A stretch of 64,000 nt of DNA from Parachlamydiales bacterium (lineage in GTDB: Bacteria > Chlamydiota > Chlamydiia > Chlamydiales > Rhabdochlamydiaceae), in NCBI GenBank assembly GCA_963705295.1, contig OY970065.1, forward strand, positions 1,184,001 to 1,248,000, read 5' to 3'. The position numbers are program-made. Shown piece by piece: positions 39,001-42,000 of the stretch (within the stretch, counting starts at the first letter, position 1; every line of letters starts with the position of its first letter).

Positions 39001-42000
39001 GGTGGGCTCGGTGGGGGTACCGATAGGGGTAACCAAACCAAGCATAGGATGCATCGATCGACCAATTATCATTGAAAGCGTAGTTGAGTGAGAAGTCCCA
39101 AGGGTAAACAGACTTTGCACTCCATTGGTCATTAAATTTCCAATCAAAGCCAAAGATGGGCCAAGCACGGCCACTCAGAACTCCGTACCAACCTAAAATG
39201 CCGACATGGACGCCGCAGCAATCAGCGAAACTGTATCTGCCCCAGAGCATCGCATGGCCAACAGAAGTTTTTGCAAAATCGAAATGGTCTGTGTCGATAG
39301 AAAAACCCGAGTTGATAATCCATTTCCACCGGTCTAAGGTTGTCGAAACATATCCGAGAGATCCATTGAGATAATTGTAGTTTTCACCGGTAAAACGGGG
39401 ATTTTTGGGCCAATGAAACCGGAGATAATCGTAGCCAAGCTCGTACGTCAGCGAGTTCTCATCATTGAAAAATTGGGTAAAATAGACACCTGCGGTGGCA
39501 TCCGAATACATGACTTTCCCCCACCGATGGGTCCGGAATTTCGCGGGAGCAACGGCCCGGTACCTGGTCTCAACATGCCAAGGTCTGTCGGGATCAATAA
39601 AATGGTAGTCAGATAAACCGTATTCTGCTGCATAGGCAAGGAGAGGGGAGATGGCTAAGGCGATTTTCCAATGCATAAATGTGCATTATGAAAAAATTAT
39701 AGATTTAAGGAAAGAATCTCTTGTGTTGTTTTGAAGTGGAGCTTTCCGAACTTGCCTAAACTTGAGGTGCCAAATTTATCAACGAGTTTGCGGCCCATTT
39801 CGATCACTTTGTTAGAAGCTCCTTTAGGGAGTTCAAAACCTGCTTCTTGACTGAGTCTATCAATCCCATCGACAAAGGCAGCGCGGGCCAAAATGGAGGC
39901 CGCTGCAACGACCGGGTCTTCTTCAGCGTGTGGCCTTTGTGTGAGGTCGATGGACAGTTGTTTCTTTTTCAAGGCCGACTCAACGAGGGCTTCGCTCGCA
40001 AATTGGTCGATCAGGGCTTTCGTACATCCCGTTTTTTCTACCAGTTCCGTGATCGCCGTTGCATGTCCCCATGCCAGGAGCCTATTCAAATTTTGGAAAG
40101 TACCGTAGAGCTCGTTGTATTTCAGAGGAGAAATGCGAACAATAGAATGGGCAAAACCATGACGAATTTTCGCGGCCATTTTGTGAATCGTCGAATCGGC
40201 CATTCTTTTACTGTCTTTGACCCCTAGCGCCAGTAGCTGTTTAATCCCTTCTTCATCGGCCTGCACACCTGCAATGCAAAGGGGCCCGAAGAAATCGCCC
40301 TTCCCGGCCTCATCAATGCCGATGTGGGGTGTCATATCAACCCCGATTTCTGGATAGGTGTACGCCAACGATTTCAGAATCTCCGGCTCGAGATAATAGG
40401 CGATGAACTCGTCCTTTCCTTTACCTTGAACAGTCAATTTGCCACTCGAATAAAGGGTGCAAGAAATTCCACTCTTCTGCGCAGATAACAACGTGTAGGG
40501 AGGCTTTGTGATTGTAAAACCCTGATCCTCCAAATCACTCTGTAATTTAGAAGCCAGCGCAACATCAATCGTCGCTACAAAAGTATTCATTCACCCCAGA
40601 TTACATTTTTCTAAAATAGTTATGAAAGACTATTATGATAATTCATCTCTTTAACAAGACGGAATAGGAATTTTAACCACCGAGCACACCGAGATCACCG
40701 AGAAGAAAATTGAGAAAAAAATGTTCGAATTGAAAAAAGCAGCTTCAGATTATACGGAACGAGTTCATGATGCTTTGACAGGAAAAATCATAGGAGCAGC
40801 AATTGAAGTGCACCGAGTATTGGGCCCAGGATTGCTAGAGTCGTGTTACGAGGCTTGTTTAATTTACGAACTCCAAAACGAGGGACTAAAGGTTGAAAGG
40901 CAAAAAGCTGTACCTATCGAGTACAAAAATGTAAAACTCGATTGTGGTTACAGACTTGATCTATTGGTCGAAGAGAAAATCATTATTGAGATCAAATCGG
41001 TGACTGAATTGAATAAAATTCACGAAGCCCAATTAATTACCTATCTAAAACTATCTAGATGCAAAGTTGGACTTTTAATGAATTTTAACCTCAGAATTTT
41101 GAAACCTGGAATTCGAAGAATAATTCTTTAGTTTCTTTCTCGGTGATCTCGGTGTGCTCGGTGGTTTAAATCTCTTCAAAAAAGGAATAGGAATTTTAAC
41201 CACCGAGCACACCGAGATCACCGAGGAGGAATAGAGAAGGAATTTACAGATTCTAGGGAGCCCGATATAGTATGGCCGCTTATGTCTGTGCAACCGATAA
41301 CTGTCTACCGTTTTAGAAAGGAAACCGTTGTCTCTCAAGACTTTGATTGGAAGAAGATCGTTGCGATCACGATGATTGTACTTCTGATTATCGCACCGAT
41401 GGGGGTGGCATTTGCTGCGGGAGCGCAACATTTGCAAGAGAGCAGTCAAAAAAATCTTTCCCATAAAAATGTATCGTCACTGGCTGCGTGCTGTCGTCAT
41501 CCATATTGGAATACGAAAGTCGCTCCACGATCTTTTTTTTCAGATCGGATGTTTCTTTATAGGACCTTTGGTTTATTTCTCGGATTATCAGAGAGTACTG
41601 GACCTCAGACAGTGGGAGAAAGAGCCCTAAGTTTAGGCTGGGAGATCCAGGCTATGAAAGAAAAGATGAGTCAAGATCGGGAAAGGCTCGAAACACTCCG
41701 TATGCAACATGCTGCAGTCTGTGCACAGGCGGCTGAGGCTTCGAAAACCAATGAGGAGAGAGTGACGTGGATTTTACGGGGAATTGAAGGATTAAAAGGG
41801 CTTAGAGAAGCTAAAGATGTTCTTCGGCTGATTCCCGATACGGCTTTATATGCCGATATCTATGTTCGGAAATTTCAGGTAAGCCGATCGTTATGGCAAA
41901 GTGCAGCTGCGATTTACTCACTGATGCGATCTTTTGTCGACCACTCGATTTTCGATACAACTGAGAGATCTCTTCTTTCCAATAAGGATGCAGAGGCCCG

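Follow-up and report, generated by a model that had tools for sequence, protein, structure and literature searches.

GxxExxY (PDDEXK_3) nuclease genes in or beside clade-specific hairpin arms of 9-nt units: a candidate REPIN/RAYT-like enzyme–repeat pair

Introduction

The RAYT genes and their REP, REPIN and BIME repeats constitute a system in which one or a few divergent genes are present per genome, each with its own repeat flavor. According to passages of PMC3116915, these repeats occur as hairpin-forming doublets and as tandem clusters that include their flanks, and they are also found in or next to each other; a section of PMC3733652 places them mainly 3′ of genes. RAYT is an HUH/Y1 tyrosine transposase that forms a covalent 5′-phosphotyrosine link, as stated in part of PMC8266576, and its inheritance is mostly vertical according to excerpts of PMC5581495. 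REP sequences are characterized by a GTAG foot and a short palindrome. The TIRtrons (Di Nocera 2013, sections of PMC3733652) carry a TIRYT gene, which encodes a Y1 transposase, within long terminal inverted repeats (TIRs) of the GGGGWSAS type, and copies of these repeats make up gene-less families of moderate abundance, arranged as dimers or clusters. Insertion sequences such as IS5 and IS630 also have gene-less derivatives with terminal inverted repeats (MITEs), and are moved by a DDE transposase with a fixed target-site duplication.

PD-(D/E)xK enzymes hydrolyze DNA and do not form a covalent intermediate, and the same fold is used in DNA mobility by homing endonucleases and the R2 nuclease. 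Members found in mobile elements include TnsA of Tn7, XisH, and YhgA/PDDEXK_2, as described in portions of a superfamily survey (PMC3424549). The same portions list PF13366 as a family of unknown function with multiple transfers, matching the statement of an earlier note on this DNA that papers mention GxxExxY/PF13366 only in this way. Enzymes of the TnsA, XisH, and R2 type work alongside a partner, which may be a transposase, a recombinase, an intron, or a reverse transcriptase. Here, we describe a GxxExxY gene (g01130) in a 64,000-nucleotide window, which is the whole stretch of DNA analyzed (contig OY970065.1 of a Parachlamydiales bacterium, assembly GCA_963705295.1), together with hairpins of 9-nt units in this genome (denoted as G000) and its relatives (other G numbers). 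The system is laid out like a TIRtron and behaves like RAYT/REPIN, and it departs from both in its enzyme and its repeat signature.

Results

The g01130 cassette and its arms

The g01130 product satisfies the GxxExxY family profiles, with matches to PF13366 (E = 6.6e-45, 152.7 bits against a cut-off of 22, profile search) and TIGR04256 (E = 8.2e-47, 158.4 bits against a cut-off of 35). As the earlier note had described, the gene lies in the loop (432 nt) of a 35 bp inverted repeat built of 9-nt units, for which we obtained a score of 32–33 (Table 1). A direct repeat of 53 nt (40656–40708 and 41179–41231, 92%) includes the 14 nt outer flank of the left arm, resulting in the layout L–gene–R–L′, in which L′ and R form an inside-out hairpin with a DNA folding energy of −41 kcal/mol. 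The cassette is located between rnhC and an unknown gene, which in turn lies upstream of an HTH_25 gene that we take to be rodZ. GxxExxY is absent at rnhC in all congeners, and the rnhC spacer is a general hotspot ranging from 78 bp to 8 kb. When the previous control (0 of 200 similar-sized genes) was enlarged to the 416 ORFs of 100–200 aa in the genome, g01130 itself was the only one with a flanking inverted repeat of score at least 15, the next best being 12. The two other GxxExxY genes of the genome also bear out the earlier description: g01213 has lost the middle of its domain and lies inside type B arms of about 46 bp, while g00477 carries an inside-out type C hairpin directly 3′ of the gene and lacks an upstream arm.

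Table 1. Positions, in the window, of the parts of the g01130 cassette and of other features discussed in the text
Feature	Position	Strand	Description
GxxExxY / PDDEXK_3 putative nuclease gene (g01130)	40721..41131	+	136 aa; PF13366 and TIGR04256 profile matches
Outer purine-rich flank of left arm	40656..40669	+	Last nucleotides recur before third arm
Left arm L, type A	40670..40704	+	T-T-A-A-C-type end, then three 9-nt units CACCGAG+2 nt
Right arm R	41137..41171	-	Reverse complement of L; begins a few nt past the g01130 stop codon
Third arm L′ with copied outer flank	41184..41225	+	Direct repeat of L
rnhC (RNase HIII), left neighbor	39697..40590	-	TIGR00716; host context, outside the element
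Gene-less type E (AACGAT units) inside-out hairpin	61759..61872		Nested in another inverted-repeat family

Hairpin families in the genome

An unbiased genome scan yielded 137 inverted repeats. Five arm families of 9-nt units were recognized, comprising 22 (A), 18 (B), 54 (C), 6 (D), and 10 (E) arms, and 103 of the 110 arms lie outside long ORFs; the arm patterns produced 0–1 matches in the reversed genome. A period of 9 nt is the only autocorrelation peak over 111 arms (0.44 versus 0.28 in shuffled sequences). GAG-type arms have T-N-A-C at their outer end, most commonly TCAC, TTAC, or TAAC. The five arm types make up about 40 gene-less hairpins, compared with three GxxExxY genes, and the 17 gene-less hairpins counted earlier were recovered as the left–right copies of type A (9) and type B (8). 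The C hairpins occur in both orientations and the E hairpins exclusively inside-out; D and E hairpins are present without a gene of those types. Nesting of one hairpin in another, which had also been reported, is observed for A in B, E lies within a different repeat family, and a tandem C array has a period of 145 nt. The hairpins are mostly positioned just 3′ of stop codons: of 42, 14 occupy convergent spacers, a class that makes up 80 of the 505 long spacers genome-wide, and 2 occupy divergent spacers, which make up 159 of the 505.

A loop insert of the GCGGC-GAA-GCCGC type, missing from the gene cassette, is present in nine of the ten gene-less A copies, which therefore trace back to an ancestor without the gene and not to independent deletions of it. 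In DNA, GNA triloops are of particular stability, and the GNA-type loop is a faint indication that the elements function as DNA hairpins. The B hairpins resemble the g01213 arms with a tiny loop. An Rfam search gave no known RNA family at the gathering score and only sub-threshold matches to miRNA-precursor hairpins. A further family, F, consists of about 50 copies of a MITE of approximately 160 bp without 9-nt units and was treated as unrelated. Y1 transposase sequence is represented in this genome by one broken fragment, far from the arms.

Arms at GxxExxY genes in other genomes

GxxExxY genes lie in or beside clade-specific arms. Among loci with at least 150 nt of flanking sequence, a flanking repeat with a score of at least 15 was found at 17 of 30 loci of relatives (controls, 1 of 25), 54 of 68 metagenome loci of the g00477 clade (controls, 0 of 19), and 14 of 30 Bacteroidota loci (controls, 0 of 29). 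For GTDB loci, the rate was 47 of 76 (control windows, 1 of 70), closely reproducing the 43 of 75 versus 2 of 70 given before. Arm types C, D, and E flank GxxExxY genes in other genomes, with type E (AACGAT) flanking one GxxExxY clade in metagenomes. The commonest layout is L–gene–R (68 of 148 loci); 29 of the 148 show no arm matching the regular expressions, and the remainder carry a single arm or additional arms, in some cases entire hairpins to one side or to both. In Bacteroidota, as for RAYT, it is common for entire hairpins to stand on both sides of the gene. The left arm overlaps the 5′ region of the GxxExxY gene in 22 of 95 loci. Long left–right pairs in the gene-selected loci enclose GxxExxY in 68 of 71 cases. 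Of the other three, one contains a nested hairpin, one (in L086) a different small ORF that has a PD...ExK-like motif, and one, formed by B arms in G055, a RAYT with its own REPs. Among 50 loci that were selected by their arms, in five genomes of other phyla, GxxExxY is present in two of the three distinct long left–right pairs.

The arm type follows the protein phylogeny in a quick IQ-TREE run of 171 proteins, whose two large groups were gathered with clade-specific queries. One clade (SH-aLRT 99, 81 rows) contains 59 GGAT, 6 ACGAT, 16 untyped, and 0 GAG arms, and the other 90 rows contain 62 GAG, 10 AAG, 18 untyped, and 0 GGAT arms; the AAG arms are scattered over the tree. Since both protein clades coexist in single genomes, each with its own arms, host base composition is not the explanation. 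Physical linkage, or co-inheritance of adjacent DNA, can by itself make the arm type follow the protein tree. By eye, a C-terminal position occupied by Tyr in sister rows holds Trp in the six ACGAT proteins; as these proteins form one clade, the substitution is not evidence for a determinant of arm type.

Co-occurrence of the gene and the arms

The earlier note had reported, from 10 hand-picked genomes, that gene-less hairpins co-occur with GxxExxY, and we extended this comparison to 60 relatives, defining arm-rich genomes as those with at least five A/B or C arm matches. Arm-rich genomes account for 14 of 20 PF13366-positive and 2 of 40 PF13366-negative relatives (Fisher p = 2e-7, which overstates the significance because kin are not independent). 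The difference persists among genomes at least 90% complete (11 of 16 with the gene versus 1 of 27 without), in size-matched genomes (8 of 11 versus 1 of 16), and in Y1-negative genomes (4 of 7 versus 2 of 30). Y1 genes are themselves associated with arm-rich genomes overall (10 of 23 versus 6 of 37, p = 0.03), but this effect vanishes at fixed gene status (10 of 13 versus 4 of 7 in gene-positive and 0 of 10 versus 2 of 30 in gene-negative genomes), and a Y1 match is absent from six arm-rich relatives. The association recurs in weaker form in 80 genomes of a Bacteroidota order scored with a single pattern, where 13 of 54 with the gene and 1 of 26 without it were positive (p = 0.029, with kin again not independent), and the one gene-negative exception has a GxxExxY remnant beside its arms. 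The C-clade gene was detected in 4 of 9 C-arm-rich relatives, compared with 5 of 51 others. The F MITE does not track the gene (2 of 4 versus 4 of 14 congeners, p = 0.57).

The association has exceptions on both sides. For the patterns used, 6 of the 20 gene-positive relatives and 41 of the 54 gene-positive Bacteroidota are not arm-rich. Conversely, G059 (92% complete, 22 arms) and G033 (58% complete) possess arms and lack a GxxExxY gene at E ≤ 1. The gene may be lost after the hairpins have spread, and nested composites, such as those seen in G044 and G055, could carry one arm type along with another.

Insertions and empty sites

The gene-less hairpins are recent, lineage-specific insertions just past stop codons. 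Two near-identical B hairpins occupy the adjoining nusG–rplK and rplK–rplA spacers of G000, where IS remnants are absent. Among the readable spacers of 29 loci in relatives, a hairpin was found in 0 of 28 at rplK–rplA and 0 of 27 at nusG–rplK, and the rplK–rplA spacer is only a few nucleotides long in most congeners. At rplK–rplA in G000, 11 nt of the native junction are imperfectly duplicated on either side of the insert. The insert comprising g00477 and its hairpin is missing in all four matching congeners (five queried), in which kdsB abuts or overlaps the convergent gene; in G000 the insert lies between these two genes. Both B hairpins and the g00477 cassette are thus insertions lacking at the orthologous sites of relatives. 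The g01213 cassette is located upstream of dnaN, with a stop codon on one side and a TTGACA hexamer on the other, and is absent in two congeners read at dnaN, whose upstream genes differ. Direct repeats with a score of at least 8 were observed at 7 of 30 hairpins and in 24 of 300 mismatched pairs, and no target duplication of fixed length was found among them, nor a common length or position of the direct repeats. The hairpins accordingly do not conform to the IS/MITE (DDE) type with its fixed target-site duplication.

Cassettes carried by larger elements

Multi-copy GxxExxY genes ride inside larger IS-like elements in two other genomes, as the earlier note had claimed. G046 has 60 matches, the sampled copies of which are cassettes in an IS5-like element, and G061 has about 33 near-identical cassette copies in an IS630-like element; gene-less arms were absent among the 40 of 88 G061 candidates that were scored. 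Self-driven multicopy spread was rejected for both genomes on the basis of the inspected copies. Within these elements, the cassettes are placed just past the transposase stop codon, as on chromosomes. G046 also contains head-to-tail arrays of whole and deleted cassettes, and internally deleted genes between intact arms are common, as exemplified by g01213 and by G046 copies.

Predicted structure and distribution of the protein

In an alignment of 100 homologues, E40, D80, and K92 are invariant and E90 is nearly so (at least 90%), indicating conservation of the putative catalytic residues D80, E90, and K92. The predicted structure (pLDDT 96) is that of a PD-(D/E)xK core to which a long helix is added at the N-terminus; a second domain is absent. 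Most of its top structural matches are PD-(D/E)xK nucleases, with Z up to 7.7. These neighbors include Cas4 SSO0001 (Z 7.7), type II restriction enzymes, and Hjc (Z 6.2), all within the background range, and R2 and XisH are weak fold matches; the fold search (best Z 7.7) does not indicate a close relative or a function. By its predicted fold and its conserved D...(D/E)xK residues, g01130 fits the PD-(D/E)xK nuclease superfamily. PADLOC returned weak Cas4-type matches only. Sequence searches of solved structures gave no match for the single protein and one at E = 0.63 for the profile, and a protein atlas from which PF13366 clusters had been removed gave no usable match. PF13366 comprises 16,733 clusters at 50% identity (E ≤ 1e-10). 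It was not found in the phage collection searched and is rare in the plasmid collection (8 of 72,556 records, mostly large replicons), both collections being biased towards other taxa.

Discussion

The layout L–gene–R with an accompanying gene-less family corresponds to that of TIRtrons, in which the enclosed gene encodes a Y1 transposase and the TIRs lack the 9-nt periodicity seen here. With RAYT/REPIN, the system shares extragenic doublets of LR and RL configuration, tandem and nested clusters, a preference for sites 3′ of genes, and an abundant repeat flavor belonging to each gene (types A, B, and C in G000), with exceptions. It differs in that the protein belongs to PF13366 rather than to the HUH/Y1 family PF01797, the arms consist of tandem 9-nt units with a T-N-A-C end in place of the GTAG foot, and the genes are scattered horizontally and often lie inside a single doublet. 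Membership in the REP/RAYT class is thus rejected, as both the HUH enzyme and the GTAG foot are absent. Compared with IS5- and IS630-type elements and their MITEs, the hairpins lack a DDE transposase, and the cassettes appear as passengers inside such elements; none of the partners used by TnsA, XisH, or R2-type enzymes is adjacent in the G000 loci. The RAYT/REPIN-like pairing suggested in the earlier note consequently holds for layout and population behavior (co-occurrence, insertions, clade-specific arms, and nesting), and fails for chemistry and family membership. Unlike RAYT, a hydrolytic PD-(D/E)xK enzyme is unable to join DNA, and the likeness is therefore not chemical. No literature linking GxxExxY or PF13366 to repeats was found in a search that took in portions of PMC3184786 and bioRxiv 2021.01.26.428298 and left subscription journals largely outside its scope, and six arm strings were likewise not found in the literature searched, with supplements and most subscription journals outside that scope. 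The association between enzyme and hairpins is real and apparently undescribed. Elhai in 2008 reportedly described small dispersed repeats in cyanobacteria, which may include some of these repeat types.

On balance, we favor the reading that GxxExxY and its hairpins form a REPIN/RAYT-like enzyme–repeat pair, in which cutting of the hairpins by their own nuclease is followed by copying through host repair. The genomic layout suggests that the protein spreads the repeats. In such a mechanism, the protein would bind the 9-nt units in single-stranded arms or in arms extruded as a hairpin or cruciform, and would nick or cut at or near these units. Since a PD-(D/E)xK enzyme forms no covalent intermediate, the joining would have to be carried out by host repair: the cut end may invade another arm copy or a microhomology, and repair may then copy the hairpin, occasionally together with the gene, to a new site. 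Several features would be explained by such cut-and-repair copying: nested hairpins and tandem arrays, genes with internal deletions, single copies whose two arms carry matching changes, and target duplications that lack a fixed form.

Three other explanations were weighed. The arms may be the regulatory or structural ends of a passenger cassette, namely an operator array for autoregulation and an RNA stem, with a selfish or defense nuclease moved by other elements and the hairpins representing collapsed cassettes spread by recombination and slippage. The frequent internal deletions between intact arms, the similarity of the B hairpins to g01213 arms, the carriage by IS5- and IS630-like elements, and the overlap of the left arm with the 5′ region of the gene are all in keeping with this view; the excess of hairpins over genes, the derived loop of the A family, the near-identical B hairpins in two adjoining ribosomal-operon spacers, and the weak PADLOC result argue against it, and we regard it as unlikely. 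An origin of the hairpins through another enzyme, such as a RAYT/TIRYT-type Y1 transposase, an IS transposase, or an unknown factor, with GxxExxY as the usual cargo, appears less probable still. It would accommodate the RAYT and the other ORF enclosed by arms, the genomes with arms and no gene, and the overall co-occurrence of Y1. Against this, the Y1 link, Y1 being the sole alternative enzyme compared, disappears once gene status is fixed, six arm-rich relatives lack a Y1 match, and the inspected RAYT-type loci (18 Y1 loci) have their own, different REPs; RAYT as the mover is also at odds with the broken Y1 fragment of G000.

We consider it very improbable that the nuclease is a host-side resolver that removes cruciforms, so that palindromes multiplying by slippage or recombination are retained only in genomes that have it. 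Co-occurrence would also be expected from such a role, and the junction resolvase Hjc is among the fold neighbors, tied with many others. A resolver leaves unexplained, however, the place of the gene inside the arms, the arm type that follows the protein clade, and the differing gene sites in congeners, and the distribution of the F MITE hairpins does not follow that of the gene.

If GxxExxY and the hairpins do form an enzyme–repeat pair, REP-like repeats arose at least twice with unrelated enzymes, and a tiny, structure- and sequence-specific nuclease family would be opened to study. Each GxxExxY clade gains its own arms as a candidate substrate, which is directly testable with oligonucleotides. 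RAYT leaves an abundant class of intergenic hairpins unaccounted for in Chlamydiota, Chloroflexota, Acidobacteriota, Planctomycetota, and Bacteroidota, and the pairing may also explain these. More tentatively, GxxExxY proteins could be the mobilizing enzymes of a hitherto undescribed kind of minimal mobile DNA that spans many bacterial phyla and reaches at least one archaeon. A nuclease of 130 aa with no strand-transfer partner would then read and cut clade-specific 9-nt hairpins, and repair would copy the gene-less hairpins and the cassette of about 500 bp, sometimes with captured cargo genes. Such a class would be a convergent, non-HUH counterpart of RAYT/REPIN and would assign a function to a family that exceeds 16,000 clusters at 50% identity. 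The third arm of the g01130 cassette and the arm families D and E had been overlooked in the earlier note.

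Other genes associated with the 9-nt arms

The arms built of 9-nt units that enclose GxxExxY (PF13366) nuclease genes may capture other genes, as in the acidobacterial array at L086. Its small ORF, of unknown family, carries a PD...ExK-like motif, and the array is flanked on both sides by genes that by eye resemble parts of methylmalonyl-CoA mutase. At the Bacteroidota locus L415, the beginning of another gene, with 7-nt repeats in front of it, runs directly into the 3′-terminal portion of a GxxExxY gene, after which the 9-nt arms follow. We take this gene start to resemble a four-helix-bundle protein. 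The fusion suggests a parallel gene–repeat system that uses these same sites.

Many GxxExxY proteins of 240–295 aa (among P0001–P0021) contain two such domains per chain, and the second domain lacks the ExK motif in several of the sequences inspected. A chain of this kind resembles a fused asymmetric dimer.

Features in and beside the repeat loci
Feature	Position	Remark
Third inverted-repeat family, copy	window 61639-61983	
Third inverted-repeat family, copy	C1:763259-763543	
Third inverted-repeat family, copy	C1:1649244-1649552	
rnhC to HTH_25 gene spacer	window 39697-43400; congener loci L162-L180	gene-gain hotspot
F MITE copy	window 42272-42436	
F MITE copy	window 19045-19217	
Gene fusion	L415:1300-1760	G116, Bacteroidota; within metH-like locus
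Array L - small ORF - R - GxxExxY - L	L086:684-1640	Acidobacteriota
RAYT gene with own REP arms, nested within type B arms	L143 = G055:C71:300-2300	

Insertion sites and neighbouring repeats

At the rplK-rplA and nusG-rplK junctions, two other genomes (L207 in G004, L208 in G014) harbor different short inserts, each flanked by a 10–20-nt duplication of the junction; such duplications are therefore not specific to the 9-nt hairpins. The rplK and rplA frameshifts in this assembly of the genome studied, G000 (C1:1765800-1766900), are probably sequencing errors, and small indels elsewhere in it should be treated with caution.

Genus-wide, the rnhC-HTH_25 spacer ranges from 78 bp to 8 kb and holds different genes. 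One copy of the F MITE lies immediately upstream of the HTH_25 gene. This element of approximately 160 bp, with TTATTAAC-type ends, occurs in about 50 copies across G000, and no partner transposase was identified for it. It is also found in several congeners without GxxExxY, and it has a small GAA-loop hairpin motif in common with the loops of type A hairpins. The third inverted-repeat family has arms containing a GGGGAGCAAGCTCCCC-type palindrome, and two of its copies enclose a type E hairpin.
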